A stretch of 64,000 nucleotides of DNA from Candidatus Nanoarchaeia archaeon (GTDB taxonomy: Archaea > Nanobdellota > Nanobdellia > Woesearchaeales > GW2011-AR4). The DNA lies in NCBI GenBank assembly GCA_035288925.1, contig DATDYS010000013.1, positions 22,168 through 86,167 on the forward strand, given 5' to 3'. Below the pieces are notes generated by a model that worked only from the letters and a program-made list of their open reading frames with translations, had not been told where the DNA came from and did no database searches. Of the stretch, positions 8,051 through 51,330 are shown one piece after another. The stretch's first letter is position 1. Each line of letters starts with the position of its first letter. Position numbers and translations under genes: made by a program.

Positions 8051-8051
8051 T

Positions 8052-8261: not shown

Positions 8262-8402
8262 TATTATTTGTATTACTTTTATTAAAATTATGTTATTTGA
8301 TACATATATTAAATTAATTAAAATTAATATTTATAAACTTTTCTGTTCAATTATTTTATCACTATACAGTAATAAACAAACGAAAGCTTTATATACTAGT
8401 TA

Positions 8403-8966
8403 TTGCAGTTATATAGTAGTACGGGGGTAAAATTGAACAAAAAAGCAGCCATATTTGCAGTCATGCTGTTTGCCCTTGGGTGGGTGAGCAGCATTATATA
8501 CTCAGGAGTTATGAGTAGCTCCAGCCCTGTTGACCATCCGGTAAGCACGCAAAGCAATGTTGCGGGTTTGCAGAAATTGCAGGGCAGCGCTTCAAGGGAC
8601 AAGCCTTCCCCTTCTGAATGGGTAAAAAACAGCCAGATTAATGTTTTTAATGACGAAGTTGTCCTTAAAATCAAAAATGCAAAGTGGGCAGTTTTTACCG
8701 ACACCAAGTCAATGGATCCGGTGATAGACTCAACCAGCAAGGCAATTCAAGTCATTCCTGAAAGTGAAAATTACATTCATGTCGGCGACATTGTGGCATA
8801 CAATTCAAAATATGAAAATGGAACTGTAACGCACAGGGTTGCCGAGATTGGGCACGATTCAAAAGGATGGTATGCTATGCTCAAAGGAGACAACAATAGA
8901 TATCCTGACCCTGAGAAAGTAAGATTTGAGCAGATAAAAAGCGTTGTTGTTGCGGTTATTTATTAG
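8403..8966 (+). CDS. signal peptidase I (archaeal Sec11/S26 type)
   Basis: N-terminal TM. SMDPV (catalytic Ser box), GDIVAY, THRV (His box). The true start may be downstream of 8403. Confidence 0.7.
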   Translation: MQLYSSTGVKLNKKAAIFAVMLFALGWVSSIIYSGVMSSSSPVDHPVSTQSNVAGLQKLQGSASRDKPSPSEWVKNSQINVFNDEVVLKIKNAKWAVFTDTKSMDPVIDSTSKAIQVIPESENYIHVGDIVAYNSKYENGTVTHRVAEIGHDSKGWYAMLKGDNNRYPDPEKVRFEQIKSVVVAVIY

Positions 8967-20743: not shown

Positions 20744-20890
20744 GCGGGGGTTATTCTTAAGCGCACGCTTTTGAATCCTTAGAGCAAAGCCTGGTCAAAT
20801 GCGCAGGACTTAAGGAGGCACCCATCTGTAAATGGGATTATGATATCCTGTCTCTTAGTGAGTACGAGGGTTCGAATCCCTTCCCCCGCA
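20744..20890 (+). tRNA. tRNA-Leu (anticodon TAA) with two predicted introns: ~31 nt near position 8/9 (non-canonical) and ~30 nt at 37/38
   Basis: Acceptor GCGGGGG pairs with CCCCCGC, then A. D-arm GCA-AAGCCTGGTCAAA-TGC. Anticodon stem CAGGA/TCCTG with loop CTTAAG|A. Long variable arm TCTCTTAGTGAGTAC. T-arm GAGGG-TTCGAAT-CCCTT. Matches the recalled archaeal tRNA-Leu(UAA) layout. Confidence 0.55.
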
Positions 20891-20941
20891 TTTTTTCTTT
20901 TCACAAACTTTTAAAAATGAGACTAATTATCAAATTACAGC

Positions 20942-21026
20942 GCCTCTGTAGCATAGTAGCCATTGCGTTGCCTTGGTATTTCAAACAAACAGGCAAAGGT
21001 CGTGGGTGCAATTCCCATCAGAGGCT
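20942..21026 (+). tRNA. candidate tRNA (anticodon GGT, Thr-like) with a 12-nt anticodon-loop intron; atypical T-loop
   Basis: Acceptor GCCTCTG/CAGAGGC. Anticodon stem TTGCC/GGCAA. T-stem GTGGG/CCCAT. The T-loop reads TGCAATT (G at 55), which is unusual. Confidence 0.35.
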
Positions 21027-22077: not shown

Positions 22078-22201
22078 GGGCCTGTGGTCTAGCGGTATGA
22101 CGTCACCTCGACAAACGGCAAAGTCCGTTTACACCTTGTGGGACATAAAGTCCCGAGTATCGAAACGGTGAAGGCCACCAGTTCGAATCTGGTCAGGCCC
22201 A
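22078..22201 (+). tRNA. tRNA (anticodon GAC, Val-like) with a ~51-nt intron; position 33 is C, not U
   Basis: Acceptor GGGCCTG/CAGGCCC, then A. D-arm GTCT-AGCGGTA-TGAC. Anticodon stem TCACC/GGTGA. T-arm ACCAG-TTCGAAT-CTGGT. The intron contains two hairpins (ACGG..CCGT, GGGAC..GTCCC). Confidence 0.5.
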
Positions 22202-26845: not shown

Positions 26846-27553
26846 TTAATCATTTATTTGCAGATTATTTATCACGCTAAGGGATCTTAATAAATCGTCC
26901 TTTTTGACTATTATTAATAATTCAGGCGCACAGCTCATTATTTCAACAATATTAACTCCTTCCGAATTCAGGCTGGATGCAACCAATGCAACAATTCCCT
27001 TGATATCCTGCGCTTCCTGTGTGAACTGCAGGTTGATTTCAACCAGTTTTTTATCAACTGAGATGACATCGTTTTTGTTGAATATATTGTAGAACTTTTC
27101 CATGTTTTTGTCATCTATGATAATTGTAATGCTTTGCTCTGCCTGGATTACCCTTATAATTTCTCCTTTTTCTATGTCCACTATTGAGTTTAACTTGCTT
27201 ATAGACTCGACGCTTCTTTTGTTTTTGCTGACCCTTAAGTCAACTATGTCGCTCCTTGTTTTTACTGCGATTTTCAGGAATAATTTTTTTAGGTTCCTGT
27301 CAGTTTCATCTTTTTCTGTTTTTTTGTATCTTCTTATTGCGCTTATCACGGCGTCCATGTTCTTGTCTTTCAAATCCAGTTTTTCTATCAAGTATCTCGC
27401 CAGTGCTCTCAGGCTCAATATATTCCTAAAAAGAGTTCTTCTTATTACGAAATCGCTGTCAAGGTATGTTTTTATCCTGTCTGATACATTATCATGTGTC
27501 ATAAAAGACCTATATGTGTCTTTATTTATAAATTTAATGGTTTTGTGCCACAA
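26846..27553 (-). CDS. hypothetical protein, possible regulator; divergent from trpE with an ACT-like C-terminal segment
   Basis: 235 aa. C-terminal GIVALVASSLNSEGVNIVEIMSCAPELLIIV looks ACT-like. Its position mirrors archaeal TrpY. No HTH could be confirmed. Confidence 0.35.
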   Translation of the reverse strand: MWHKTIKFINKDTYRSFMTHDNVSDRIKTYLDSDFVIRRTLFRNILSLRALARYLIEKLDLKDKNMDAVISAIRRYKKTEKDETDRNLKKLFLKIAVKTRSDIVDLRVSKNKRSVESISKLNSIVDIEKGEIIRVIQAEQSITIIIDDKNMEKFYNIFNKNDVISVDKKLVEINLQFTQEAQDIKGIVALVASSLNSEGVNIVEIMSCAPELLIIVKKDDLLRSLSVINNLQIND

Positions 27554-27657
27554 TCTTTAAGTACATGTATTTGTTTTATTTGTTTATGAAAATTAACTTA
27601 CTTAACGGATATTTGGATATTCTCTTTGATAATTTAGTCTCTGTTTCTTGGAATTAA

Positions 27658-30942: not shown

Positions 30943-31699
30943 CAAATTCATTGAACAGGCAAAAGAAAATGTGAAACGCGGATATTATGATATATCGCGT
31001 GGGGCTATGCTTGATATAAAGCGAAATTCCCTAAAGCAAAAACTGCTGTCCCAATATTTTACGTTAATTGCTGAAATAAAGCACGCTTCCCCTGCAGGAG
31101 AGTATTCTTTTGATGATGTGGATGCAAATGAGCTGGCATTCAAGTTCAAAAAAGCAGGCGCAGATGCCATTTCAGTTGTGGTAGAGCCAAGAATTTTCAA
31201 AGGGCGCCTGGATAACATCACTATCGCAAAGAAAACTAATTTGCCCGTGCTTTTCAAGGATTTTATCATTGGGGAAACACAAATTAAAAGCGCTGCTGCA
31301 TTGGGAGCAGACTGCATACTTTTGATTGTAAAAGTCGGAGAAAGGCTGAATTTGGATATTGGCAAACTGATAAGAAGAGCGCATTCTTATGGCATGGAGG
31401 TTTTGCTGGAGTGCTATGATAAAGAAGAAGCCCAAAAAGCATTAAGGACAGAAGCAGATATCATTGGCATAAACAACAGGGACCTAAAAACTCTTAAAGT
31501 CGATTTAAATCAGACAAGGGAAATGATGGAATATCTTAGAACTCAAAATCGCCCGGTAATAAGCGAAAGCGGAATAAAGTCAGATAAAGATGCTGAATTT
31601 GTCAAATTGCAAGGTGTCAATGGAATATTGGTCGGCACTGCCATCTGGACTGCAAATGACCAATACGCTAAAATAAAAGAGCTTAGGCTGCGTGAATGA
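30929..31699 (+). CDS. trpC: indole-3-glycerol phosphate synthase (monofunctional; no TrpF domain)
   Basis: 256 aa. IAEIKHASP and INNRDLKT motifs. Confidence 0.85.
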   Translation: MDILDKFIEQAKENVKRGYYDISRGAMLDIKRNSLKQKLLSQYFTLIAEIKHASPAGEYSFDDVDANELAFKFKKAGADAISVVVEPRIFKGRLDNITIAKKTNLPVLFKDFIIGETQIKSAAALGADCILLIVKVGERLNLDIGKLIRRAHSYGMEVLLECYDKEEAQKALRTEADIIGINNRDLKTLKVDLNQTREMMEYLRTQNRPVISESGIKSDKDAEFVKLQGVNGILVGTAIWTANDQYAKIKELRLRE

Positions 31700-31792
31700 T
31701 ATATTCAAATTAACAAAATAAATGAATATTATGCGGAGAGAATATTAAATAAAATAACACAAAGAAATTGAATCGAGACTTTATGTCTCTTC

Positions 31793-31857
31793 AAGCTTGA
31801 CGAGTTTCTTTTGGTCAAGCTTTTCTTTGTTAAAGAAAAGGTTGTTGGTGAACAATA
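31793..31857 (+). promoter_or_regulatory. conserved leader element: AAGCTTGAC-N12-GTCAAGCTT palindrome plus TTTCTTTGTTAAAGAAAAGGTTGTTGG, upstream of trpB
   Basis: Perfect 9-bp inverted repeat. The downstream 35-nt block recurs almost unchanged at 35494-35524 (aroB leader) and inverted at 43075-43114. Confidence 0.6.
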
Positions 31858-33033
31858 ATGAAAACTTTAGGAAAATTTGGAGACTTCGGAGGAATATTTG
31901 TTCCGGAAACTTTGATTCCGGCGCTTGAAGAATTGGAAGAAGCGTTTTTTAGGTTGAAGGATGATAAAAAGTTTAATTCCGAGCTAAAAGATTTGCTTGA
32001 GAAATACGCGGGAAGGCCGACTGCTTTAACTTTCTGCCCAAATTTAAGCAGGAAGCTTGGCTTTAAGCTTTATCTTAAGCGGGAAGATTTGCTGCACACA
32101 GGCGCCCATAAGATAAACAATGCTTTGGGGCAGGCTTTGCTTGCAAAATACATCGGAAAGAAAAGATTGATTGCAGAAACGGGTGCAGGGCAGCATGGAG
32201 TTGCAACTGCAACAGCCGGAGCCCGCCTTAATTTCAAGACAGATGTTTACATGGGCTCAAAAGACATTGAAAGGCAGAAATTAAATGTCCTTAGGATGAA
32301 ACTGCTTGGCGCAAATGTTGTTCCCGTTGAATCAGGCTCTAAAACTCTTAAGGATGCCATTAATGAGGCACTTCGTGACTGGACTGCCAATGTTGAAGAT
32401 ACTCATTATCTTCTTGGAAGTGTACTGGGGCCGCATCCGTTTCCAACCATGATTAAATATTTCCAGAGCGTAGTTGGAATTGAAGCGCGGAAGCAGATAC
32501 TTGAAGCTGAGGGCAGATTGCCTACCCATATAATTGCCTGTGTCGGAGGCGGCTCAAATGCTATCGGAATCTTTAATTCATTCATTGATGATAAAAGCGT
32601 GGGATTGATTGGCGTGGAAGCCGGTGGGGAAGGGATTAAGGGCGGAAATCACGCTGCCCGTTTTGCAGATTCTTCGCTTGGAAGAGTCGGAGTCATACAC
32701 GGCACGAAAACATTTGTCTTGCAGGATAAATACGGCCAGATACACAATACTTCTTCAATAGCCGCAGGCCTTGATTATTGCGCTGTTGGACCTGAGCATA
32801 GCTTATTGAGAGATATTAAAAGAGTTTTATACACTTATGCAACTGATTTGGAGACACTTGATGCTTTTAAGGTATTATCTAAAGAAGAAGGGATTATTCC
32901 TGCGCTTGAAAGCGCGCATGCTGTTGCTCATATTTTGAAAATTGGCAAGAGCTTGAAGAAGGACGATGTTGTAATAGTAAACCTATCGGGAAGGGGAGAT
33001 AAGGATTTGGATCAGATTCAGGAATATCTTTGA
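31858..33033 (+). CDS. trpB: tryptophan synthase beta chain
   Basis: 391 aa. [12 protein letters not shown]-lysine motif. Confidence 0.95.
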
Positions 33034-33134
33034 TTTAAGATTTGATTTTGATTAGGATAATTAGGATTAAAATAAAAATAAAACATTAATGGCAGGCAAA
33101 CACGGGTTTTCTTGGTGAAAACCCTACTCACAAG

Positions 33135-33166
33135 GGAAATTTCCGAACTTCGTAACGGAAATTTCC
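33135..33166 (+). promoter_or_regulatory. intercistronic stem-loop GGAAATTTCC-N12-GGAAATTTCC between trpB and trpA
   Basis: Two copies of the self-complementary 10-mer GGAAATTTCC at 33135-33144 and 33157-33166. Confidence 0.4.
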
Positions 33167-33220
33167 TCTGCATTCGGTTTGCCGCCATACGACTCAGTTT
33201 TCGTCCAACGGAACTTCAAA

Positions 33221-34030
33221 ATGAAAACCTATGAAGAAGTTTTTTCAAATCTGAAAAAGGAAAATAAAGGCGCTTTGGTTGCTTTTATCGTAGCCGGAGA
33301 CCCTGATTACGAGACTAGCCTTCAAATAGCAAAAGCAGTTTGCGATGCAGGTGCTGATATTCTTGAAATCGGGCTGCCGTTTTCCGACCCTATCGCTGAC
33401 GGAAAGACCATACAGGCTGCTGATATACGGGCTTTAGGGAATGGAATGAATACTGACCTATTTTTTAAGTTTGTAAGCGATTTAAGGAAGCATACTGATG
33501 TTCCCATTGGCGTATTGTCATATTATAATCTTGTTTACCAAAGAGGCATAGAGAAATTCTGCATTGATTCAGGGAAAGCCGGAATCAACAGCATCCTGAT
33601 TGCTGACATGACAATAGAGGAAAGCGATTCAATGATTCTTAATGCCAAGAGGCACTCTGTTGAAACTGTTTTCATGATAACTCCGCTTACAAATGATTTG
33701 AGGATAAAAGAAATATCTTTACATTCCAATGGATTTATTTATCTGGTTTCAAGGCTTGGAGTCACAGGCGCCAGAGAGGATTTAAGCAAATCCACTTTGG
33801 AATTAATTAAAAGAGTCAGGAAATTTACTGACAAACCTCTTTGCGTTGGATTTGGAATAAGCACAGCTTCCCATGTTCAAGATGTAATTAACGCAGGCGC
33901 AGACGGCGCAATTGTCGGAAGCGCGATTGTCAAGATTATTGAAGAGAATTTAGAAAACAAAAAAAAGATGGTGGAAGAAGTTAAGGAGTTTGTGAAAGGA
34001 TTAAAAAACACAACATTTAAAAACACATAA
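33221..34030 (+). CDS. trpA: tryptophan synthase alpha chain
   Basis: ORF track frame from 33179. The likely start is MKTYEEV at 33221. Motifs GLPFSDPIADG, GFGIS, GSAIV. Confidence 0.85.
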   Translation: MKTYEEVFSNLKKENKGALVAFIVAGDPDYETSLQIAKAVCDAGADILEIGLPFSDPIADGKTIQAADIRALGNGMNTDLFFKFVSDLRKHTDVPIGVLSYYNLVYQRGIEKFCIDSGKAGINSILIADMTIEESDSMILNAKRHSVETVFMITPLTNDLRIKEISLHSNGFIYLVSRLGVTGAREDLSKSTLELIKRVRKFTDKPLCVGFGISTASHVQDVINAGADGAIVGSAIVKIIEENLENKKKMVEEVKEFVKGLKNTTFKNT

Positions 34031-34213
34031 TCAATCTTATCAATAATATGGAAAGCATCGTTTCAACTTCAAATGTAAGTTCTTTTAGCTATTTCTATTT
34101 CTGGCAGTAAGCCAGACCACCATAATTTTTAAATCATTGGCAATTTCAAGCCTTGATAGGGCTATATTCAGTTTTATCAAGTCGCTTTGAGTTCGGCACG
34201 CCACCATGGCGCT

Positions 34214-34288
34214 GGCTTGACGGGGGTTGTCCCGTGACATGTGAGCGAGTTCGCAACGAGCTCACTCGCAAGTCACTGGGTGTCAAGC
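34214..34288. repeat. second copy of the ~70-bp palindromic element (GCTTGAC...GTGACATGTGAGCGAGT...GAGCTCACTCGCAAGTCAC...GTCAAGC), upstream of the DAHP synthase gene
   Basis: Shares TGACATGTGAGCGAGT, GAGCTCACTCGCAAGTC and GTCAAGC with 740-808. Confidence 0.6.
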
Positions 34289-34369
34289 GAGGCGAAGCCG
34301 ACAGCCGCCATTGTGTGGCGTGCACTAATAAGAATAAACAATTAAAATCAATCAACGGAGGAAACTAAA

Positions 34370-35386
34370 ATGATAATCGTATTGAAAGAAGAAACATCAA
34401 AAGAGGAAATAAAAGATTTAATAGAGAAAATAAAAGAAACCGAGTTAAGGCCGGTTGAGTTCAATGGAGACGAAAGAACTGTAATCCATGTTCTGGGAAA
34501 CGTCACAGAGCAGACTGTAAACAGCTTCAGCTCCATTAAATGCGTTGAAAGGGTAATGAGAATTCTAAAGCCGTTCAAGCTGGCGTCTAAAGAGCATCAT
34601 CAGGGAACAACTGTTGTAAGAGTTGGAGATGTGAGTATAGGAAACGGAGAGATAACCGTAATAGCAGGCCCCTGCTCGATTGAATCAGAAGAGCAGATAA
34701 TGGAATCAGCAAACATAATGAAGAAATTGGGAATAAAAATCATGAGAGCTTCAGCATTCAAGCCAAGAACTTCGCCTTACGATTTCCAGGGAATGGGGAT
34801 AAAAGGATTAAAGCTGTTAAAGAAAGTCAAGGAAAAAACAGGAATATTAACAGAAACAGAAGTAATGGACGTAAGGGACGTTCCCATAGCTGCAGAATAT
34901 GTTGATGTCCTGAGAGTTGGAGCAAGAAACATGCAGAACTATGACTTGTTAAAGGAATTGGGAAAGATAAACAAGCCGGTCATATTAAAAAGGGGAATGT
35001 CAGCCACAATCAATGAATTCCTGATGGCAGCTGAATACGTACTATACCACGGCAACAAAGATGTGATATTATGCGAAAGGGGAATAAGGACTTTCGAGAC
35101 CGCTTACAGAAACACTTTGGATGTAGGCGCAGTTGCAGTATTAAAAAACATGACGCATTTGCCTGTGATAGTTGACCCAAGCCACGCAGCCGGAAAAAGA
35201 GAATTAATTGCACCGTTAAGCAAGGCAGCGATTGCAGCAGGGGCAGACGGGTTATTAATTGAATGCCATCCAAATCCAGAGAAAGCACTAAGCGATGGAG
35301 CGCAATCCATATATCCTGAGCAGTTAGCGCAATTGTTAAAAGATCTAAAGCCTTTATGCGAGGCTTTGGGAAGAAAATTGGGTTAA
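34370..35386 (+). CDS. 3-deoxy-7-phosphoheptulonate (DAHP) synthase, class I-beta, with N-terminal ferredoxin-like regulatory domain
   Basis: 338 aa. ~70-aa N-terminal extension, then the KDO8PS/DAHPS I-beta core (CSIESEEQ, KPRTSPY, DPSHA). Confidence 0.8.
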   Translation: MIIVLKEETSKEEIKDLIEKIKETELRPVEFNGDERTVIHVLGNVTEQTVNSFSSIKCVERVMRILKPFKLASKEHHQGTTVVRVGDVSIGNGEITVIAGPCSIESEEQIMESANIMKKLGIKIMRASAFKPRTSPYDFQGMGIKGLKLLKKVKEKTGILTETEVMDVRDVPIAAEYVDVLRVGARNMQNYDLLKELGKINKPVILKRGMSATINEFLMAAEYVLYHGNKDVILCERGIRTFETAYRNTLDVGAVAVLKNMTHLPVIVDPSHAAGKRELIAPLSKAAIAAGADGLLIECHPNPEKALSDGAQSIYPEQLAQLLKDLKPLCEALGRKLG

Positions 35387-35439
35387 AAACAATAAAAACT
35401 AAAAATAAAACAAGAAAAATAAGGGCTTTATGCCCTTCC

Positions 35440-35524
35440 AAGCTTGACGAGTTCCTCTTCAAGAGGGCTTTGAACTTTGTTCAAAACTTTTTTGTCAAGC
35501 TTTTTCTTGTGGAGAAAAAGGTTG
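35440..35524 (+). promoter_or_regulatory. conserved leader element, aroB copy (AAGCTTGACGAGTT ... GTCAAGCTTTTTCTTGTGGAGAAAAAGGTTGATGG)
   Basis: Same 5' AAGCTTGACGAGTT and 3' GTCAAGCTTTT-CTTTGT-AGAAAAGGTTG-TGG blocks as the trpB leader. Confidence 0.6.
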
Positions 35525-36652
35525 ATGGACACCATAAATGCGAAGATAAAATCAAAGGAATACGATTACCAGATTTTCGTAGGCAGCTCTATCCTAAACG
35601 AACTGGCAGATTTTATTAAAAAAAATCACAGCGGAAAGAAAGTTGCAGTCATAATGGGAGAGCACACCAGCAGGCTGCACAAGCCAAAGCTCGGCAAAAT
35701 ATTAAGCGACCTAAACCCATTGTTCATAACAGTCCCTTCAGGAGAATCTTCCAAATCCAGGGAAATGAAGGAAGAAATAGAGGACAATTTATTAGACCAT
35801 AAGTTCGGAAGGGATTCTTTAATCATAGCAATTGGCGGCGGAGTAATCGGAGATTTAGCCGGATTCGTGGCATCGACTTTCAACAGGGGGATTCCGGTAA
35901 TTCATGTGCCGACTACTTTATTGGCAATGGCAGACTCATCCATCGGCGGGAAAACGGCGATAAACACAAAGCACGGAAAGAATTTAATCGGAACTTTCCA
36001 CCAGCCCGATGCGGTATTTGTTGACATGGATTTTCTGGAAACGCTGCCGGATGACGAATTCAAAAGCGGATTGGGAGAAATCATAAAGCAGGGAATAATA
36101 CAAGACAAAGAACTGTTCAATTTTCTGGAAAAACACTGCAAGGAAATTCTTGAAAGAAAAAAAGACGTCCTGCAGCATATAATAAAGCGCTCAATTGAAT
36201 TAAAAAAGCAGGTTTTTGAATTGGACTCTCATGAAATGGGTTTGAGGCAGATTCTGAATTTCGGGCACACTTTCGGGCATGCTTTGGAAGCATATTACAA
36301 TTACAAGATAAAGCACGGATTTGCAGTAGCCATAGGAATGGTTGTAGAAGCAAGAATTTCAGCAATGACAAATAGTCTAAAGGAAAATGAGGAAGAAAGA
36401 ATCAGAAACATGATTAAAATATTCGGGTTTCCCATGTCTGATTCCGCCGGCACTTCAAAAATAATGGAACTTATGGTATCGGACAAGAAATCAAAAGGAA
36501 ACCGGCCAAGGTTTGTCTTGATTGACAGAATAGGAAAAGCAAAAGAAAAAGACGGCAGTTTCTCGTTTGAAGTTGACAGCAAGGTCGTAGAAGAAGCGAT
36601 AGAAAAAAGCAAAGATGAGTATGATTCAAAAACCAATCAGTTAATAAAATGA
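35525..36652 (+). CDS. aroB: 3-dehydroquinate synthase
   Basis: The ORF track starts at 35477. The likely start is MDTINAK at 35525, which falls inside the conserved leader block. Motifs GGGVIGDLAGF and the metal-binding His region. Confidence 0.85.
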   Translation: MDTINAKIKSKEYDYQIFVGSSILNELADFIKKNHSGKKVAVIMGEHTSRLHKPKLGKILSDLNPLFITVPSGESSKSREMKEEIEDNLLDHKFGRDSLIIAIGGGVIGDLAGFVASTFNRGIPVIHVPTTLLAMADSSIGGKTAINTKHGKNLIGTFHQPDAVFVDMDFLETLPDDEFKSGLGEIIKQGIIQDKELFNFLEKHCKEILERKKDVLQHIIKRSIELKKQVFELDSHEMGLRQILNFGHTFGHALEAYYNYKIKHGFAVAIGMVVEARISAMTNSLKENEEERIRNMIKIFGFPMSDSAGTSKIMELMVSDKKSKGNRPRFVLIDRIGKAKEKDGSFSFEVDSKVVEEAIEKSKDEYDSKTNQLIK

Positions 36653-39600
36653 TTGAGATAAATTCTGTTCAGAATCTTGATGCAGAGATTTCCATTCCTG
36701 GCAGCAAGTACATAGCAAACAGGTTGCTGATTATATGCGCTTTAGCCAACGGAACTTCAGTTCTGAAAAATGTGCCTGACAATGAGGATATTAATAATTC
36801 CATAAAAGCCCTGCAGCAATTCGGAATCGAGATTGAAAAAAATAAGGATAATCTGACAATAACCGGAACAGGAAAATTAAAAGCTCCAAATAACGAAATA
36901 AATGTAGGCGACTCAGGAACTTTATTAAGATTTATAACTGCATTTTCCGCTCTTGCAAAAGGGAACACCAAAATTACCGGAAGCAAAAGGATTCAGGAAA
37001 GGCCTATTTCTGATTTATTAAAAAGCTTGAGTGATTTGGGCATCAAATCCAATTCAAAAAATGGAAATGCGCCTTTGACAATTACCGGCGGGAATTTAGA
37101 TGGCGGAAAAACGAAAATCAAAGGAAGCATAAGCAGCCAGTTCATCAGCGCTTTGCTGTTAATCTCGCCTTTTGCAAAAAATGATGTAGAAATAACCATA
37201 GATGGGGAGCTGGTTTCTTCTGGATACGTTGATTTAACAATTAATTTGATGAAAGAATTCGGAGTAAATGTGGAAAGAAGCGGAAGCAGATTCACAGTCA
37301 AGGCAAATCAAAAATATAAATCAAGAAATTTTACAATTCCATCTGACTGGGCCTCTGCAAATTATTTTCTGGCAGCTGCAGCAATTGTTCCGGGAACTGT
37401 GACAATTAATAATCTGGATTTTAAGTCAAAAGTCCCTGAATCAGGATTTTACAGGGTATTGGAGAAGATGGGCTGCAAAGTTTTGCTGGATAATAATTCA
37501 ATAAAAATAACTGGAACTGATAAGTTAAAGCCAATTGATGCAGATATGGGTTCAATGCCAGATTCAGCGCAAACCTTAGCTGTTGCTGCACTATTTGCAG
37601 ACGGGACGACAAAAATAAGAAATATTGGAAATTTAAAATTCAAGGAATCAGACAGGATTAATGATACTGCAACTGAATTAAGGAAATTGGGCGCAGATGT
37701 CGAAGTAAAAAACGACGAATTAATAATTAATAATAATTTAAAAAAACTAAATTTCAAATCGGCAATCATTGATTCCCATAATGACCACCGGATGGCAATG
37801 AGCTTTGCAGTTGTCGGATTAAGAATTCCTGGAATTAAAATAGATAATCCGGAATGCGCAAACAAATCATTTCCGCAATTTTTCGCCAAATTAAATAAAA
37901 TAACAGCAAAGAAACAGAAAAATATTGTTCTGATTGGGTACAGGGGAGCCGGAAAGACGTCAACGGCAATGGAATTATCAAAATTGACAGGAATGAATAT
38001 CATTAGCACAGATGAAGAAATCTCAAAAAAAGTCGAAATGCCGATAGCGGATTTTATCGATAAAAACGGATGGGATGAGTTCAGGAAAGCTGAAAATGAA
38101 GTAATTGAAAGCCTCAAAGATGCTGATGGAGTGATAATTGACTGCGGCGGCGGAGTGGTTGAGAATGAGAATAATATCAAACTAATAAAACAAAATGGAG
38201 TGGTTTTCTGGCTTCGTGCGCAGGTCAGCGTGCTTGCTGACAGGATTAAAGACACTAAAAACAGGCCCTCAATAACCGGAAAAAAATCCTTTATTGACGA
38301 GATTGACGAAGTCTTGAGAAAAAGAATCCCCTTTTACAGGAAAGCCTGTGATTTTGAAATTGATACCAGCAACGAAAATCCGCTTCAAATAGCCCAATTG
38401 ATAATAAAATTGTATTCAATTCAACCTGTGAAAACAAGAATATGCGCCGTGATAACCGCAGACAATGTGAAAGACGCGCTTAATGATATGAAAAAAGCGG
38501 AATCCTCGGATTTGGTAGAATTAAGGCTGGATTTCATCAAGAATATTGATGAAAACAAAGTTAAGGAATTAATGAATAATAAAAAACAAAGAATAATTGC
38601 AACACTAAGGCCAGTTAAATTTGGTGGATTATTCAAAGGAGAAAAGAAAGGGAGATTTGCATTATTAAACAAAGCAATTGAGCTCGGAGCGGATTTTGTT
38701 GATGTTGAATTCGGCTCTGAAATTGCCGCGGATATTATTAAGAATAAAAAATCTTCAAAAATAATAATTTCGCACCATGACTTTAATGAAACTCCGTCAC
38801 TGGAAAAATTGGAATCAATCTACAGCCAAATAGATAAGTTGAATCCTGATTTTGTGAAGATTGTAACGGCTGCAAATTCAATCAATGATAATTTTATAAT
38901 TTTTGATTTACTTAAAGGAAAAAATAATTTAATATCATTTTGCATGGGGCAAAAAGGGGAGATTTCAAGGATTTTAGCGCCAAAGTTCGGCTCTGCGGTT
39001 ACATACTGCAGTATAAATCAAAACAAAGAATCCGCTCCCGGGCAGATTACTCAGGAAGAAATGAATAATCCGTATCATGTTGGTTTAATCAATCCGCAAA
39101 CTAATGTAATTGGAATAATTGGAGAATTCGCCGAGAATTCAATGTCAAAGTACATGCACAATCCTAATTTTGTGAAGAACAACGCCAATTTTGTCTATGT
39201 CCCTTTCAAAGTGTCTCCAAATGAATTAAGCGAGTTCATGGATAATTTCAAGAAATTTAATTTTAAGGGGGCTGCTGTTACGATTCCGCATAAAGAAACC
39301 ATAATCGGCCTGATACACAATGTAAATGAAACTGCGGACGAAATCGGGGCTGTAAATACGTTGGTTAGGGATGACGAAAAAATCATAGGCTATAATACTG
39401 ATTATTACGGCGCCGTTGAATCATTAAAGGAGAAATTAAATTCAAAAGGAAAGAAAGTCTTGGTTATTGGAGCAGGAGGGGCTGCAAGAGCCGTTATTTA
39501 CGGATTAAAGAAAGAAGGGGCAGAAATTATAATAATTAACCGAACAGGAGACAAGGCAAAAGAGCTTGCAGAAAATTTTAAGGTTAGCTTTGACAAATTT

Positions 39601-39921
39601 GAGAATATAAAATCATTGGCAAGGCAGGCTGATGTAATAATCAACACAACCAGTTTGGGGATGACGCCATTTGAAAACGGATGCGCCCTGGAAGAAGATG
39701 AATTGCCGGAAGGAAAGATTGTCATGGATGTTGTCTACAAGCCGGTTATCACAAAACTTATTAAGCTTGCGCAAAAAAAGAAATGCAGGACAATCACTGG
39801 CGACAGAATGCTTATATACCAGGCAGTAAGGCAATTTGAATTATGGACGAAAATAAATCCTGGATTTGAAAATATGGAAAAAGAACTGGCAAAGGAAATT
39901 AATAAAAATAAAAAACAATAA
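36649..39921 (+). CDS. tetrafunctional shikimate-pathway fusion: EPSP synthase, shikimate kinase (AroK-type), 3-dehydroquinate dehydratase (type I), shikimate dehydrogenase. AROM-like domain order
   Basis: 1090 aa. The EPSPS N-terminal ~420 aa carry LGNSGT-like GDSGTLLRF. P-loop kinase IGYRGAGKTS. Type I DHQase segment ICAVITAD...LRLDF. SDH segment with GAAVTIPHK and GAGGAARAVIYGL. Overlaps the aroB stop by 4 nt. Confidence 0.8.
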   Translation: MIEINSVQNLDAEISIPGSKYIANRLLIICALANGTSVLKNVPDNEDINNSIKALQQFGIEIEKNKDNLTITGTGKLKAPNNEINVGDSGTLLRFITAFSALAKGNTKITGSKRIQERPISDLLKSLSDLGIKSNSKNGNAPLTITGGNLDGGKTKIKGSISSQFISALLLISPFAKNDVEITIDGELVSSGYVDLTINLMKEFGVNVERSGSRFTVKANQKYKSRNFTIPSDWASANYFLAAAAIVPGTVTINNLDFKSKVPESGFYRVLEKMGCKVLLDNNSIKITGTDKLKPIDADMGSMPDSAQTLAVAALFADGTTKIRNIGNLKFKESDRINDTATELRKLGADVEVKNDELIINNNLKKLNFKSAIIDSHNDHRMAMSFAVVGLRIPGIKIDNPECANKSFPQFFAKLNKITAKKQKNIVLIGYRGAGKTSTAMELSKLTGMNIISTDEEISKKVEMPIADFIDKNGWDEFRKAENEVIESLKDADGVIIDCGGGVVENENNIKLIKQNGVVFWLRAQVSVLADRIKDTKNRPSITGKKSFIDEIDEVLRKRIPFYRKACDFEIDTSNENPLQIAQLIIKLYSIQPVKTRICAVITADNVKDALNDMKKAESSDLVELRLDFIKNIDENKVKELMNNKKQRIIATLRPVKFGGLFKGEKKGRFALLNKAIELGADFVDVEFGSEIAADIIKNKKSSKIIISHHDFNETPSLEKLESIYSQIDKLNPDFVKIVTAANSINDNFIIFDLLKGKNNLISFCMGQKGEISRILAPKFGSAVTYCSINQNKESAPGQITQEEMNNPYHVGLINPQTNVIGIIGEFAENSMSKYMHNPNFVKNNANFVYVPFKVSPNELSEFMDNFKKFNFKGAAVTIPHKETIIGLIHNVNETADEIGAVNTLVRDDEKIIGYNTDYYGAVESLKEKLNSKGKKVLVIGAGGAARAVIYGLKKEGAEIIIINRTGDKAKELAENFKVSFDKFENIKSLARQADVIINTTSLGMTPFENGCALEEDELPEGKIVMDVVYKPVITKLIKLAQKKKCRTITGDRMLIYQAVRQFELWTKINPGFENMEKELAKEINKNKKQ

Positions 39922-40009
39922 TAAAAATACATTACGAAACTAACTACAATACGACTAAAAATTCAATACAATACTAATAATCATCAACGAAAAATCAAAA
40001 ACTTAAAAG

Positions 40010-41113
40010 GTGAATAAAATGCCGGGAAACTCGTTTGGAGAATCATTCAAAATAACAAACTGGGGCGAGAGCCACGGAAAGGCGATTGGAGTGGTCATAG
40101 ATGGGTGTCCGGCACTATTAGAACTGAATGAAGGTTACATACAAAAATTTCTTGACAGAAGAGCGCCAGGCCAAAGCGATATCACAACTCAAAGGCAGGA
40201 GCCTGACAAGGTGGAAATACTTTCAGGACTGTTCAACGGCAGGACAACAGGAACTCCAATCAGCATGATAATCTCCAATAAAGATTACAAAAAAGAAGAC
40301 TACAAGGAGATTGCAGCAGCCTTCAGGCCCAGCCATGCGGACTTTACGTACCAAAAAAAGTTTGGAATCAGGGACATGTCCGGCGGAGGAAGAAGCTCGG
40401 CAAGATTGACCGCAGGAAATGTCGCAGCAGGGGCAATTGCATACAAGATACTGAATGAAAGGTTTGGCGTTGAAGTGGTTGCTTATGTAAAGCAGATTAA
40501 AGATGTACAAGCTGAAATTGATTCTGAAAAAGTTTCAAAAAAAGACGTTGACTCAAACATTGTCAGGTGTCCGGACAAAACTGCGGCAAAGCAGATGATT
40601 GAATTAATTGAAAATGCAAAAGACAAGGGAGATTCCGTAGGCGGAATAATAGAATGCATCATAAGAAACGCCCCAATCGGACTGGGAGAGCCGATTTTTG
40701 ACAAGCTGGAAGCGGATTTGGCAAAGGCAATGCTCTGCATCAATGCAACAAAGGGCTTTGAAATAGGCTCCGGGTTTGAAGGGACTAAATTATTCGGCAG
40801 CCAGCATAATGATGCCTTCGTGATGAAAAACGGAAAAGTTGAAACAAAAACAAACAACTCAGGCGGGGTCCAGGGAGGAATTTCAAACGGAATGCCAATC
40901 ATCTTTAGAGTCGCATTCAAGCCCACATCTACAATTCAAAAAGAGCAGGATACTATTGACATCAAAGGAAAGTCAGTAAAATTAGCCGCTAAGGGGCGCC
41001 ATGACCCATGCGTTTTGCCCAGGGCAGTCCCGATTGTCGAGGCAATGGCTTCTCTTGTCCTGTGCGACCATTACTTAAGGCAAAGGGCGCAGAACGGTGA
41101 TAAATTTGATTGA
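40010..41113 (+). CDS. aroC: chorismate synthase
   Basis: 367 aa. GESHG, GRSSAR motifs. Confidence 0.9.
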
Positions 41114-42116
41114 TGAGCTAAGAAAGGCAATTGATGGGCTGGATGAAAAAATATTAAATCTGCTTTCCAAAAGGAAAAATTTAGCTAAGGAAGTTGCGAA
41201 ACTAAAGGAAAATCTGGACTTGCCTGTTTTTGACAAAAAAAGGGAAGAGGAAATATTAAAAAATATTTCCGGCAGGGCAAAGCAGTTGGGACTTGATGTG
41301 AATTCTGTTTCAGATGTATTTAACGCAATCTTCCGGGGCTCGAGAAGCGAGCAGCAAAAGCAGATGGGCAAAGTTGAATGCAGCGTCAAAAAAATAGGAC
41401 TAATCGGCTTTGGAAGATTCGGAAAATTGATAGTAAGGCATCTTTCAGGCGACTTTGATTTTTATGTTTATGACAGATTGGCAAACAAGAATGAAATAAA
41501 AAATAATAATGCAGTCCCATCATCACTAAAGGAATTATGCCGGCTGGATATTATAATCTTAGCTGTCCCAATTTCAGAGATTAAATCTGTTTTGAATGAC
41601 ATCAAAAATTTATTAAAAAAAGATGCATTGGTTGTGGATGTCTGCTCGGTGAAAGAATACCCTATTAAATTAATGAAAAATATTTTGCCAAAAAGCGTGC
41701 AGATTCTTGGGACTCATTCAATGTTCGGGCCCGATACCGCCTACGACTCATTGGAGGAAAAAAAAATAGTATTGTGCAAAGTCAGGATTCAAAATAATCT
41801 TTATCTGCAAATCAAAAGATTTCTTGAAAGTAAGCAGCTTGCAGTTATCGAGGCAACTGCGCAGCAGCATGATGCGGAAATGGCAAAATCGCTTGTGCTG
41901 ACTCATTTTATCGGAAGAGCACTTATGGATATAGGAGTTTCTGATATGGAAATTGATACAAAAAGTTACAGGGATTTGCTCAGAATTTTAGATACTGTAA
42001 AAAATGACACATGGCAGCTTTTTGAGGATATGAATAAATTCAACAAATATTCAAAAGGAGTGAGAAAGGATTTAATCAAGTCGTTAAGCAACGTGGAGAA
42101 AAAATTATCAAAATGA
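41097..42116 (+). CDS. tyrA: bifunctional chorismate mutase (AroQ) / prephenate dehydrogenase
   Basis: N-terminal AroQ helix [20 protein letters not shown], then the NAD-binding [10 protein letters not shown]. Confidence 0.75.
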
Positions 42117-42931
42117 AAATAGCATACCAGGGAATCAAGGGGGCTTACAGCGAGGCAGCTGTCTACAAGCATTTTGGAGACAAAGCAGAATCTGCCGGGT
42201 TTGATACTTTTGAGGAAGTGTTTGAAGCAGTCAAATCAGGCAAAGTGGATTATGGAGTTGTGCCTGTTGACAACACAATAGCTGGAACTGTTGCTGCAAA
42301 CTGCGATTTGCTTTTAAAGCACGATGTTTATGTGATTGCGGAGATTTATTTGGATATCCATCATAATCTGCTTTCGCATAAAGGAACTTCATTGAAAGAT
42401 TTGAAAATTATTTATTCGCATCCCCACGCGCTGGAGCAGTGCAGGGAATTCATTAAAAAGCATAAATTAAAGTCAGTGCCGGAATATGACACTGCGGGAG
42501 CTGCAAAAATAATAAAGGAAAGAAACAAGAAAGACGAGGCTGCCATAGCTTCCGAATTCTGTGCCAAAATTTATGGTTTGGGTATAATTGAAAAAAATAT
42601 TTCAACTGCAAAGAACAACATTACAAAATTTTTTGTTTTTGTCAACAGCGATAAAATTCCCAAAAATATCAAGCAGGAAAAAACAAGCATTGTTTTCAGG
42701 ACAAAGCATTACCCGGGAGCATTGATCAACTGCCTTCAGAGGCTGGCAAAGCATGATATTAACCTGACCAAGCTTGAATCAAGGCCGGTTCCTGAAAATC
42801 CATGGGAGTATTCTTTCTATGCGGACTTTGAAGGCGGAGTCGAGGACGAAAAGGTAAAGCTTGCATTAAGCGAGATGGAAGCTTCTTGTGAATTCTTAAA
42901 GGTGCTTGGAAGCTATCCGAAAGGAAAATGA
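42113..42931 (+). CDS. pheA: prephenate dehydratase with C-terminal ACT domain
   Basis: 272 aa. PDT domain then an ACT domain with ESRP. Confidence 0.85.
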   Translation: MKIAYQGIKGAYSEAAVYKHFGDKAESAGFDTFEEVFEAVKSGKVDYGVVPVDNTIAGTVAANCDLLLKHDVYVIAEIYLDIHHNLLSHKGTSLKDLKIIYSHPHALEQCREFIKKHKLKSVPEYDTAGAAKIIKERNKKDEAAIASEFCAKIYGLGIIEKNISTAKNNITKFFVFVNSDKIPKNIKQEKTSIVFRTKHYPGALINCLQRLAKHDINLTKLESRPVPENPWEYSFYADFEGGVEDEKVKLALSEMEASCEFLKVLGSYPKGK

Positions 42932-43049
42932 CAGGGAACATTTATAAACAAAAAATCAATTCGAGTTCTTATCACGCCGGGGTCGCATAACCTGGTCAAT
43001 ATTCGAAGATGTTGAATCTTCAATATTCAGGAAATTGCGCAAGCCTGGA

Positions 43050-43125
43050 AAGCTTGTTTCCGAAAGGATATCTGGGTTCAAAACAACCTTTTCTTTTGCA
43101 AAGAAAAGCTTGACCAAAAGAAAGG
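43050..43125 (-). promoter_or_regulatory. inverted orphan copy of the trpB/aroB leader element
   Basis: The reverse complement reads CTTTCTTTTGGTCAAGCTTTTCTTTGCAAAAGAAAAGGTTGTTTTGAAC, near-identical to 31806-31850. Confidence 0.5.
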
Positions 43126-43262
43126 CACTCACGAGGTGGTGGGGCAAACCCCACTGGCTTAATGTTGCTTTCACACGGAAAGGTTGCTGAAATTCCCAGC
43201 TCCGGCGTTTTTAATTTTAATTCTTTGAGAGGTTATAGGCCAATTTTCAAAAGATATTACTG

Positions 43263-43970
43263 CTAAAATCCCCTGTTATTCCCCCATAAATGAATGTGCA
43301 GCCTATCGCTGAAATTAAAACCATGCTCTTTGCATAGTTCAATGAGCCATCTGCTTCTTTCTCTTATAGTTTCACTGTTATCCCCTTCAGGCATCAAGTA
43401 AACTTTGCCGGCTGGAATTGCAAGCTGGGTTCGCAGTTCAGAGACATCATCTAAATCCTCTGGAGATGCTACCACAAATTTTAATTGGTAATCATGCCTT
43501 GCCATAAATTTAGATAGTGCTTCAAGGTTTCTCATTAACCTTCTGTGCCTTGCCTCATACCTAGATCCTAAAGGAATACTGTTTTCCATTTTTGGTGATA
43601 TGCTCATATAAATTTGAGTCGGCAATTCCTTAAATATACTTCCATTGGTCTCCACTGTAACCTGATAGCCTGATTCTGTAAGCATTCTGGCAAGCTCAGG
43701 AAGATCCTTTTGTAAAAATGGTTCACCGCCTGTAATTACAACATGCCTTGCCGGGGTTTTTGCTGCCTGCCCCACTAATTCTTCCAATGGCACAAAACTG
43801 CCCTTAGGCTCCCACGATGTGTAGGGCGTGTCGCATTTTGTAACTTCCCCAGTTCTTTGGTCTCTCCACTCGCATCTTAAATTGCAGCCGGAACTTCTGA
43901 TAAAAAAAGATGGCACGCCTATATGTTTTCCTTCGCCCTGCACCGAGTAAAAAGTTTCTGCAACGTACAT
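43263..43970 (-). CDS. queE: 7-carboxy-7-deazaguanine synthase (radical SAM)
   Basis: 235 aa. FIRSSGCNLRCEW...C cluster, TGGEP. Confidence 0.85.
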   Translation of the reverse strand: MYVAETFYSVQGEGKHIGVPSFFIRSSGCNLRCEWRDQRTGEVTKCDTPYTSWEPKGSFVPLEELVGQAAKTPARHVVITGGEPFLQKDLPELARMLTESGYQVTVETNGSIFKELPTQIYMSISPKMENSIPLGSRYEARHRRLMRNLEALSKFMARHDYQLKFVVASPEDLDDVSELRTQLAIPAGKVYLMPEGDNSETIRERSRWLIELCKEHGFNFSDRLHIHLWGNNRGF

Positions 43971-51221: not shown

Positions 51222-51327
51222 TAAATAAGTATTTAAATAAGTACTAAAATAAGTAAATTCTGTTTTCAGTAAGAATTTCAAACCACAAGACTTATAAATA
51301 AGTATTTTATTAAGTAATAAAATAAGT
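51222..51327 (+). promoter_or_regulatory. array of five exact AAATAAGTA 9-mers (51222, 51235, 51247, 51296, 51319) upstream of a small AbrB-like gene
   Basis: Read directly. Confidence 0.6.
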
Positions 51328-51330
51328 AGA

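Follow-up and report, generated by a model that had tools for sequence, protein, structure and literature searches.

A dispersed, modular RNA-hairpin cassette as a candidate operon-internal leader in a Woesearchaeota/Nanoarchaeia clade

Structured elements upstream of trpB and aroB in the 64,000-nucleotide stretch of DNA analyzed here (the window) are best explained, with moderate confidence, as copies of a dispersed and modular RNA-hairpin cassette that is specific to a Woesearchaeota/Nanoarchaeia (DPANN) clade and may serve as an operon-internal leader RNA. Database records name this clade both as 'Candidatus Nanoarchaeia archaeon' and as 'Woesearchaeota'. Because the leaders precede many unrelated genes, the cassette would appear to be a general gene-expression element with no particular tie to the biosynthesis of aromatic amino acids, rather than a switch for aromatic genes.

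All four sequences that the initial annotation reported were recovered where it had placed them. The arms of hairpin H2, AAGCTTGAC and GTCAAGCTT, lie on the forward strand at 31793-31801 and 31814-31822 in the trpB copy (copy A) and at 35440-35448 and 35494-35502 in the aroB copy (copy B). Counted on its own, the arm 9-mer gives an excess of a weak kind only (33 matches with at most one mismatch versus 19.7 expected, with 33 reached in 0 of 100 shuffles); tests of the leader family as whole elements are decisive. Comparison of intergenic regions by blastn linked five of them. A covariance model (R1) trained on 13 copies, including A and B, with C and D outside the training set, assigned 98.9 bits to copy A, 97.6 to B, 68.1 to D and 30.7 to C (E = 6e-5). 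A scan of the whole 64 kb with filters off returned no significant match beyond these four, giving the window three full copies (A, B and D) and one degenerate copy (C), and another ~19 kb of this genome contained no copies of the leader element. The leaders are thus present as first described, but they are longer, ranging from 86 nt in the short form up to 180 nt, and the additional parts comprise S1, which is A-rich and lies upstream, and H1, a hairpin whose loop reads TTTAT.

Copy A is a short form on the forward strand (31759-31844), situated between trpC, which ends at 31699, and the trpB ATG at 31858. It consists of S1 at 31759-31767 (ACAAAGAAA), H1 at 31775-31789 (GAGAC TTTAT GTCTC), the H2 arms given above, S2/S3 at 31823-31841 and GGTTG at 31840-31844, and an extra, separate GGTGA Shine-Dalgarno sequence stands ahead of the trpB ATG. 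Its S1 and S2 are complementary over 9 bp, and S1, S2 and S3 have changed coordinately. Copy B (35406-35524, forward strand) separates the DAHP synthase gene, ending at 35386, from aroB, whose start codon we correct to the ATG at 35525, immediately 3' of GGTTG; a module of two hairpins, M1, occupies 35454-35486 on the same strand within its H2 loop. Copy D is a long form on the reverse strand (663-842), between moxR (1007-1942) and a DUF58/vWA gene (DUF58, E = 1.5e-35) that is read from an ATG at 659-657 and leaves the window edge, both genes also being on the reverse strand. Module M2 lies in the H2 loop of copy D and module M3, again two hairpins, in its S2/S3 loop; longer contigs also contain this very copy.

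The copies have a common layout, from 5' to 3', of S1 (ACAAGAAAAA), H1 (a variable stem with the loop UUUAU), UUCC, H2 (AAGCUUGAC, loop GAGUUCUUUUUG, GUCAAGCUU), S2 (UUUUUCUUGU), S3 (AAGAAAAAG), GGUUG and, after 0-13 nt in every copy that has a downstream gene, AUG. The element contains three helices within 86-180 nt at a GC fraction of 0.32-0.40. In five of six copies the predicted minimum free energy structure is a three-way junction of S1:S2, H1 and H2 that leaves S3 through AUG free (z = -4.1 to -4.7 for those five, -4.5 for copy A). Three of the six H1 pairs show GC-to-AU double changes and 97% of cells are paired, values reached in 0 of 500 shuffles, a control that overstates significance because the copies are inter-related. 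In 11 of 16 copies S1 and S2 are complementary over 8-10 bp, L074 being unmeasured because an insert displaced its S2. The TTTTACTTG variant (copy D, L079, L084 and L089) introduces an uncompensated A.A mismatch into both S1:S2 and S2:S3, while in L075 and L088 an A has become a G opposite U, a wobble that is workable only in the sense RNA. A structured RNA leader, one of the options in the initial annotation, is the best reading of the element.

S2 is predicted to have two mutually exclusive partners, S1 at -8 to -10 kcal/mol and S3 at about -9 kcal/mol; these pairings would involve the ribosome-binding region, where AAGG in S3 constitutes only a weak Shine-Dalgarno sequence. The 9 bp of H2 are invariant and therefore give no covariation evidence; H2 could equally be a protein or DNA recognition site. 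Inserts of 33-65 nt sit at loop apices, are themselves hairpins and carry compensatory changes (GAGC/GCTC versus GAAC/GTTC; AAAAAUCC/GGAUUUUU versus AAAAACC/GGUUUUU). A search of Rfam gave no match at the gathering score, the best sub-threshold hit (E = 0.004) being a chance hairpin match.

From its position between co-directional genes, the cassette would be transcribed within the operon mRNA. Pairing of S1 with S2 would close the three-way junction with H1 and H2 and leave the purine-rich S3 tract and the start codon single-stranded, such that the cassette may provide an insulated, reproducibly accessible translation-initiation region for the operon-internal cistron and perhaps also a protective 5' structure following processing. 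Pairing of S2 with S3 would represent an alternative, occluded state. Copies probably originate via duplication or recombination and acquire or shed self-folding hairpin modules at their loop apices, and one partial copy appears to have inserted, inverted, into a tRNA intron.

Related metagenomic contigs supplied 15 more copies (14 by pattern scan and one in L095), which precede aroB and genes for ribosomal proteins S13 and L18e, RNA polymerase B' (RpoB'), Sec61beta, SecD/F, LemA, a RimK-like protein and membrane proteins. The functions of these genes are mutually unrelated and most copies precede non-aromatic genes. Together with the DUF58 copy in the window, the copies at genes other than aroB contradict the proposal that the leaders are specific to an aromatic supraoperon. 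Wherever sequence upstream of the element could be read (12 of 12 cases, a small sample that includes the rpoB''|rpoB' junction), the gene there runs in the same direction, and every copy associated with a gene has the sense orientation.

Placement directly upstream of genes would also be expected of an internal promoter cassette, in which CTTTAT of the H1 loop, or T-rich S2 for leaderless transcripts, acts as the TATA box, so that transcription of the downstream genes would start separately, and GGGCTTTATGCCC does resemble the local promoter core GCTTTAAAAA / GCTTTATAAAT. However, nothing in the element matches the BRE/TATA consensus of the lineage, which would be expected some 22-24 nt 5' of the start: its best score is -3.4 bits with a weight matrix built from 13 local promoters, 12 of which scored 10-22 bits when left out in turn. 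Divergent spacers carry the element in 0 of 12 cases, whereas it does occur in closely packed operons, rpoB''|rpoB' among them. The H1 stem shows covariation that is not required of a TATA flank, and inserts of the observed sizes would shift any fixed TATA-to-start distance. Internal promoters, as the initial annotation had suggested, are therefore improbable.

Confinement to spacers of co-directional genes would likewise suit an intra-operon terminator or polarity element, where H2 plus U5, and a second U5 in the H2 loop, would partially stop archaeal RNA polymerase and so tune how strongly the upstream gene is expressed relative to the downstream one. The sequence GUCAAGC UUUUU CUUG falls immediately after the 9-bp hairpin, tRNA genes in the window end in runs of T5-T6, and it is a caveat to the cassette reading that archaeal RNA polymerase could terminate at its two T5 tracts. 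We nevertheless give termination a low probability, since the element takes its position from the downstream start and not from the upstream stop codon, which lies anywhere between 0 and about 390 nt away, is found between RNA polymerase subunits required in equal amounts, and has conserved S1, H1, S3 and GGUUG that a terminator leaves unexplained.

The initial annotation had reasoned that leaders lacking from the orthologous operons of relatives would indicate a recent local duplication without function. At least six related lineages (L006/L079, L075, L084, L085, L089 and L095) keep the aroB copy at the orthologous DAHPS|aroB junction, so that this objection fails, and the family exceeds chance or purely local duplication. 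The orthologous cores are 91.6-100% identical (mean 95.8%), and the aroB DNA beside them is 71% identical, with third codon positions at 50%. The trpB copy is not conserved, trpF occupying that position in relatives. More distant relatives with identical gene order (L097 and L098) lack the element, which is therefore dispensable.

Such a distribution raises the alternative of a selfish miniature mobile repeat, MITE- or REP-like and without host function, whose likeness between copies reflects recent spread or gene conversion. The family is dispersed and modular in composition, the modules differ between orthologous aroB sites, and presence or absence is lineage-specific, with copy A replacing the trpF of relatives. 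A partial inverted copy lies within a tRNA intron, and M2 is shared with an otherwise unrelated palindrome (element E, below). Against this, the core is 96% identical though synonymous sites are near saturation across lineages, orientation is strictly single, and start codons anchor the copies. Neither terminal inverted repeats nor flanking target-site duplications show in the alignments, the S1 and S3 ends being direct-repeat-like, and viral contigs gave no matches. We consider a purely selfish origin unlikely.

The copy within the tRNA intron is copy C (43084-43169, reverse strand), an 'orphan' copy without a downstream gene. The initial annotation had correctly recognized a reversed copy here; it proves to be full-length, half-degenerate and located inside a tRNA intron rather than in plain spacer. 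Its 3' half (43082-43123) matches copy A with 95% identity over 42 nt and contains the S2/S3 variant otherwise private to copy A, whereas its 5' half has degenerated to the hairpin GTGGGGTTTGCCCCAC with the left arm gone. The host is an unannotated tRNA-Ser(GGA) gene (42976-43207, forward strand) with two non-canonical introns on that strand, one in the D-loop (about 42995-43031) and one in the T-loop (43084-43186) that holds copy C in antisense. Neither ARAGORN nor Rfam detected the gene in raw, unspliced DNA, yet ARAGORN called tRNA-Ser(gga) in 88 of 88 variants spliced in silico. A BHB-like junction of the T-loop intron can be read off the sequence as CUGGG UUCA [AAA] CAACCUUUUC ... GGAAAGGUUG C UGAA [AUU] CCCAG, and an orthologue is conserved in L006 with a different intron set. 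The cloverleaf after intron removal, the BHB and the orthologue all identify the host as an intron-containing archaeal tRNA. By inspection, predicted folds of the canonical cassette copies contain no BHB (3-nt bulge, 4-bp helix, 3-nt bulge), which speaks against an element bounded by splicing-endonuclease sites.

Better attenuator candidates than the cassette are two leaderless leader-peptide ORFs that the initial annotation had missed. Upstream of DAHP synthase, the ORF at 34048-34110 on the forward strand (MESIVSTSNVSSFSYFYFWQ) encodes a peptide ending FSYFYFWQ, and a TATA box (TTTAAAAA, 34016-34023) is located 24 nt 5' of its ATG. Its stop codon falls in the loop of the hairpin CTGGC AGTAA GCCAG, 3' of which are a second hairpin and a T-rich tract (attenuator-like region 34048-34200). 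This leader peptide is kept in 7 of 7 lineages, with indels in multiples of 3 and fixed TATA-ATG spacing. A second conserved ORF of 23 codons (27586-27657, forward strand; MKINLLNGYLDILFDNLVSVSWN*) stands upstream of trpE, the real ATG of which is at 27676; a TATA box (27556-27563) and the palindrome TTGTGCCACAA (27543-27553) lie 5' of it, and orthologues are found in L095 and L075 (3 of 3 lineages). A short ORF enriched in codons for the regulated amino acids and followed by hairpins is present at both of these sites and not in the cassette.

These promoters bear on the model in which the leaders form an aromatic-supraoperon operator or attenuator bound by the ACT-like protein divergent from trpE. 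Three copies and the related palindrome E do lie within 12 kb of trp/aro genes, the arms form a perfect inverted repeat, and the adjoining 218-aa protein, with its weak ACT_7 match, keeps its place beside trpE in L095. That match is sub-threshold (E = 0.0015), however, and the protein's own divergent promoter has a different, conserved palindrome, TTGTGCCACAA. The trp and aro units each possess their own promoter and leader-peptide ORF, arm spacing varies (12, 43, 45 or about 65 nt), which argues against a shared operator for a dimeric regulator, and the model is further contradicted by the unconserved trpB copy and the non-aromatic genes that follow most copies. We regard it as highly improbable.

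Element E is a GC-rich 128-nt palindrome (34196-34323) inserted in the DAHP-synthase 5' leader. Its outer stem (GGCACGCCAC.../...GTGGCGTGC) encloses module M2 and the arms GCTTGAC (34215-34221) and GTCAAGC (34282-34288), which match seven of the nine cassette arm bases and not the other two, so that the identity of arms claimed for this palindrome stands in part. The inner 40-nt M2 is common to E (34234-34274) and copy D (757-795), in inverted relative orientation. E is predicted to fold at -75.8 kcal/mol (z = -5.6) and is absent from the DAHP-synthase leaders of L075, L089, L095 and L006. We rejected E as a member of the leader family, since model R1 does not recognize it and only M2 and the 7/9 arm bases are in common.

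The cassette, which we continue to read as a probable operon-internal leader RNA, can be compared with several known systems. Like integron attC sites, it lies between co-directional ORFs as an imperfect palindrome whose outer arms are conserved and whose centre varies. In contrast, attC sites follow mobile cassette ORFs beside an integrase, whereas the cassette is flanked by core genes (rpoB, ribosomal proteins, trp/aro) with no integrase seen and takes start codons as its anchor. E. coli trpL and pheL are leader-peptide attenuators. Such attenuators control amino-acid biosynthesis in cis from the 5' leader, as the initial annotation had sought, but the cassette encodes no peptide. Leaderless polycysteine sORF attenuators are described in mycobacteria (bioRxiv 10.1101/834739).

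REP/BIME elements, which the cassette resembles, are short repeated intergenic palindromes, often intra-operon, co-transcribed and acting at the RNA level. REPs are linked to RAYT transposases, and about 83 kb of this genome showed no RAYT (IS200/IS605-like) transposase. Each REP is one GC-rich, imperfectly palindromic hairpin of about 20-40 nt, and both orientations occur, whereas the cassette spans 86-180 nt at 33-40% GC, with three helices plus optional modules, in one orientation anchored to the downstream start codon; it thus departs from REP/BIME in size and palindrome as in placement and orientation. REPs, repetitive extragenic palindromes of bacteria and, by RepRanger, archaea, tend toward 1-20 nt past the upstream stop codon (PMC12306157).

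MITEs such as the Correia elements of Neisseria are similarly about 100-150 bp, dispersed and modular, with the presence/absence polymorphism seen for the cassette between relatives, and can be co-transcribed and alter the expression of adjacent genes (PMC10969869). The cassette differs in having internal inverted repeats, without terminal inverted repeats or target-site duplications, a core 96% conserved despite saturated synonymous sites and a fixed gene-relative orientation. Translational riboswitches and RNA thermometers, whose expression platforms conceal or expose the ribosome-binding site, differ in turn: the cassette precedes unrelated genes, suggests no ligand, has no Rfam family and tolerates large insertions in two loops. 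It nevertheless shares with them a conserved, predicted multi-helix junction immediately 5' of the start codon, and its U-rich S2 is predicted, riboswitch-like, to pair with either upstream S1 or purine-rich, ribosome-binding S3.

The look-alike leaders are real and non-random. All four stretches singled out by the initial annotation, in front of trpB, aroB and the DAHP synthase gene and downstream of pheA, are present as described, and an all-against-all comparison linked five intergenic spacers (549-1006, 31700-31857, 34031-34369, 35387-35538 and 42932-43262). Since the first of these is linked, the window already contains a copy away from the aromatic genes, in the spacer separating moxR from a DUF58 gene. 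A covariance model (R1) built from 13 copies of the leader element, A (31759-31844, +) and B (35406-35524, +) included, scores A at 98.9 bits, B at 97.6, copy D (663-842, -) at 68.1 and the degenerate copy C (43084-43169, -) at 30.7 (E = 6e-5). There was no other significant R1 match in the 64 kb with filters off, and ~19 kb more of the same genome beyond the window held no additional copies; the density is about one copy per 20-25 kb.

Inspection of the copies reveals a common layout. From 5' to 3', a pairing strand S1 (ACAAGAAAAA) is followed after 2-8 nt by hairpin H1 (a 4-6-bp stem of variable sequence with a TTTAT loop), TTC(C) and hairpin H2 (AAGCTTGAC, GAGTTCTTTTTG, GTCAAGCTT), and then by strand S2 (TTTTTCTTGT), a G, strand S3 (AAGAAAAAG), GTTG, 0-13 nt and ATG. 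That same 0 to 13 nt of spacing led us to reject GGTTG as a fixed-distance Shine-Dalgarno. Optional self-folding modules occur at three places: the H2-loop apex, the position directly 3' of the H2 right arm, and the S2/S3 loop. M1 is carried by copy B and the relative's contig L088, M2 by copy D and L084, and M3 by copy D, L079/L006, L084, L080 and L095.

The surrounding cluster is encoded on the + strand. It comprises trpE, trpG, trpD and trpC (ending at 31699), trpB (start 31858) and trpA, DAHP synthase (34370-35386), aroB (ATG at 35525), a four-domain EPSPS-SK-DHQase-SDH fusion (36649-39921), and aroC, chorismate mutase-prephenate dehydrogenase and prephenate dehydratase (ending at 42931). 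The fusion after aroB (aroB and fusion together, 35525-39921) is 1090 aa long and is kept in the clade at 67-84% identity; its domain order is that of the eukaryotic pentafunctional AROM protein minus AROM's first domain. Pentafunctional proteins of 1523-1527 aa at 31% identity were also found, as were AroB-EPSPS fusions in other Woesearchaeota. The window is archaeal, as two intron-containing tRNAs and the presence of aEF-1alpha, ribosomal protein S10 and AMP phosphorylase show, and a sigma-70 -35 box (TTGAC) was rejected because the host is archaeal.

The element is under tight constraint. Across seven orthologous DAHPS|aroB copies, core identity is 91.6-100% (mean 95.8%), while in the same lineages aroB has diverged to 71% identity over its first 291 nt and to 50% at third codon positions. 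Strong purifying selection or continual homogenisation must therefore act on the element, which, on this comparison of sequences, is not decaying junk. H1 shows GC<->AU double changes at three of six pairs, with 97% of cells paired; H2 is invariant and hence uninformative for covariation. S2:S3 has two covarying pairs, in copy A, where a single G:C pair has moved one position in S1, S2 and S3 together. Of 16 copies, one of which (L074) has S2 displaced by an insert, 11 show 8-10 bp of S1:S2 complementarity, and an A-to-G change opposite U in L075 and L088 fits only sense-strand RNA pairing. The weak point of the structure case is the uncompensated TTTTACTTG variant of copies D, L079, L084 and L089, in which an A.A mismatch weakens S1:S2. 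RNAfold predicts a three-way junction (S1:S2, H1, H2) for five of six copies, with z of -4.1 to -4.7, and the predicted junction leaves the GAAGAAAAAGGUUG-AUG tract unpaired in those five. S2:S3 is nearly iso-energetic with S1:S2, so an occluded alternative state is possible in these models.

The best explanation, which we hold at about an even chance, makes the element a structured RNA leader cassette that is lineage-specific and internal to operons. Such a cassette would offer ribosomes an unpaired purine-rich initiation region and would spread by duplication and recombination; we infer every functional step of this model from sequence. The junction might further act as a translational switch, in which a protein, small molecule or physical signal would favour S1:S2 (ON) over S2:S3 (occluded), a reading built on the predicted folds that we regard as unlikely.

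Searches of relatives address how widely the element is distributed. An AroB search returned one true relative, a 'Candidatus Nanoarchaeia archaeon' MAG at 80% identity, whose DAHPS|aroB spacer holds the element; its contig begins 1.3 kb upstream, short of the trpB site. A 38-bit pattern scan of metagenomes gave 19 loci, 14 of them true members, and further contigs were reached through fusion-protein homologues named Nanoarchaeota or Woesearchaeota. At DAHPS|aroB the element is present in L095 and absent from L097 (67% identity; a plain A-rich spacer instead), L098 (47%) and L093, where phage-like genes break up the locus. In L093, an insertion with an M23 peptidase gene and a Bro-N gene separates DAHP synthase from aroB (7274-8703), and an M3-like hairpin is the sole remnant of the element; a Bro-N gene likewise adjoins the cluster in L097. 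The trpC|trpB copy is confined to the window's lineage. L075 (6082-6696), L095 (4727-5341) and L097 (2910-3536) have trpF between trpC and trpB, and the window has copy A in that place (31700-31857), with no trpF noticed elsewhere in the 64 kb.

The initial annotation had read these leaders as a shared operator for a dimeric regulator, an attenuator or a leader RNA coordinating internal promoters. The arms lie 12, 43, 45 or about 65 nt apart, and this variability rules out a conventional dimer operator; the operator model as a whole is now highly improbable. Nor is an aromatic-specific reading supported, for copies also precede DUF58, ribosomal, RNA polymerase, Sec and other genes. Genes 3' of the other copies encode ribosomal proteins S13 and L18e, RNA polymerase B', Sec61beta, SecD/F, LemA, a RimK-like ATP-grasp protein and unknown membrane proteins. 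The gene on the 5' side is read in the same direction in all 12 cases that have upstream sequence, rpoB''|rpoB' among them. At such junctions an internal promoter could be imagined, as could a polarity terminator. The former is quite improbable: against a PWM from 13 promoters of the clade (CCGAAAGCTTTAAAAA type), 12 of which reach 10-22 bits in leave-one-out scoring, the best score inside the element is -3.4 bits, and a promoter of the local type was rejected. The hairpin-rich anatomy invites the polarity terminator and the attachment to downstream starts does not; we find it equally doubtful.

The leader element matches no Rfam family; searches of the whole window at the gathering threshold, and of 42900-43300 and 31600-35600 at an E-value threshold, returned chance matches only. 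No link to viruses emerged: viral contigs gave 0 matches to the specific 5' pattern and 64 chance-like matches to the 3' pattern TTKGTCAAGCTTTTNYTTG, which is too unspecific. A BHB-bounded intron-like RNA was rejected, as inspection of the predicted folds showed no BHB, and so was an integron attC site, given the core genes around it and no integrase. The 34-nt direct repeat at 51222-51255 and 51295-51328 (91% identical, with an internal palindrome), in a 422-nt spacer before a P-type ATPase operon, is unrelated to the family.

The orphan inverted copy reported downstream of pheA does exist, but it lies antisense inside the T-loop intron of a tRNA. The spacer, conserved in L006, contains an unannotated tRNA-Ser(GGA) (42976-43207, +) missed by ARAGORN and by Rfam, with two non-canonical introns, one in the D-loop and one of 103 nt in the T-loop (43084-43186). 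ARAGORN calls tRNA-Ser(gga) in 88/88 in-silico spliced variants. The L006 orthologue has a canonical-position intron and an unrelated T-loop intron, so intron positions vary between close relatives. Elsewhere, Rfam detected two intron-containing tRNAs (20942-21026 and 22078-22201) that ARAGORN did not, as their introns left it with zero tRNAs on raw window DNA. Adjoining these, ~150 nt at 20744-20892 (+), with acceptor GCGGGGG...CCCCCGC and T arm AGGGTTCGAATCCCT, was reported by neither program and is probably another intron-containing tRNA.

The 3' half of copy C matches copy A at 95% identity and has a private variant of A in common, so that C looks like a recent intragenomic transfer into spliced-out sequence. 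No other finding speaks so clearly for movement or recombination of the cassette, or of parts of it, at the DNA level. Such movement is what a selfish repeat would show, and the constraint on the element is not; we consider this reading fairly unlikely. A classical MITE or REP was rejected, terminal inverted repeats and target duplications not being seen. Moreover, REPs are anchored to upstream stop codons (PMC12306157) and the leader element, in contrast, to downstream start codons.

The palindrome before DAHP synthase, described in the initial annotation as flanked by the same arms, stands outside the family despite some common parts, as R1 misses it. This GC-rich hairpin (E, 34196-34323; MFE -75.8 kcal/mol) contains GCTTGAC / GTCAAGC arms and M2, inverted relative to copy D. 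It is an insertion in an otherwise conserved DAHPS leader and is absent from L075, L089, L095 and L006.

DPANN archaea have small genomes and few regulators, and this lineage has very few transcription factors. To our knowledge, very little is known about the expression of genes within DPANN operons. An 86-nt non-coding element that is 96% kept where neighbouring synonymous sites are scrambled, and that always lies shortly before a start codon, is thus a strong candidate for a new archaeal cis-acting RNA, with possible roles in translation initiation, insulation, stability or switching. If the switch were true, several dozen operon-internal genes, for ribosomal proteins, RNA polymerase B', Sec components and aromatic biosynthesis, would form a post-transcriptional regulon, and the element would be a new class of archaeal cis-regulatory RNA in a DPANN lineage. 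The element is also a handy clade marker, and an attractive but wrong inference, the pathway-specific operator, is corrected.

Better candidates for aromatic control than the hairpin cassette are two short ORFs, which from their sequences look like leaderless Phe/Tyr/Trp leader-peptide attenuators before DAHP synthase and trpE. The conserved part of the DAHPS leader (region 34016-34200) is a Phe/Tyr/Trp-rich ORF at 34048-34110, MESIVSTSNVSSFSYFYFWQ and stop. Equivalent ORFs ending YFYFWQ, YFYFGW or SAFYFSC before the stop occur in 7/7 lineages (the window, L075, L089, L093, L095, L097 and L098, the last with a fusion protein only 47% identical), with length differences in multiples of three and synonymous TAT/TAC changes. 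Every lineage has a TATA box whose end is 22-24 nt ahead of the ATG, which predicts leaderless transcripts. L098 folds differently; the six closer lineages share a conserved hairpin with the stop codon in its loop, followed in most cases by a second hairpin, variable in sequence, and a U-rich tract. The arrangement resembles a classical aromatic attenuator. RNAalifold recovers the stop-codon hairpin alone because the second does not align. Masking the ribosome-covered part of the DAHPS leader revealed no clear antiterminator; in L075 a pairing of the YFY codons with the DAHPS Shine-Dalgarno is predicted. Three DAHPS leaders (L093 6020-6140, L095 7520-7640, L097 7540-7660) carry a ~120-nt conserved block (GAGTGCAGAGGGAA..TCC...TTTCCTTTGCGAATAGG..TTTTGA...) 3' of the leader peptide, which may be another structured RNA; the window lacks it and has palindrome E at about that position.

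The second conserved leaderless ORF, of 23 codons (27586-27657, MKINLLNGYLDILFDNLVSVSWN and stop), ends in SVSWN with a single penultimate Trp and stops 19 nt before the real trpE ATG (27676). Just upstream of its TATA box lies a conserved palindrome, TTGTGCCACAA (27543-27553), at the promoter common to this ORF and the divergent 218-aa protein, for which it is a candidate operator; that protein's ACT_7 match is sub-threshold only. If real, the DAHPS and trpE leader peptides would make the question of archaeal attenuation directly testable. Our literature search found no paper on leader-peptide attenuation in Archaea, and the nearest concept is that of the leaderless polycysteine sORF attenuators of mycobacteria (bioRxiv 10.1101/834739).
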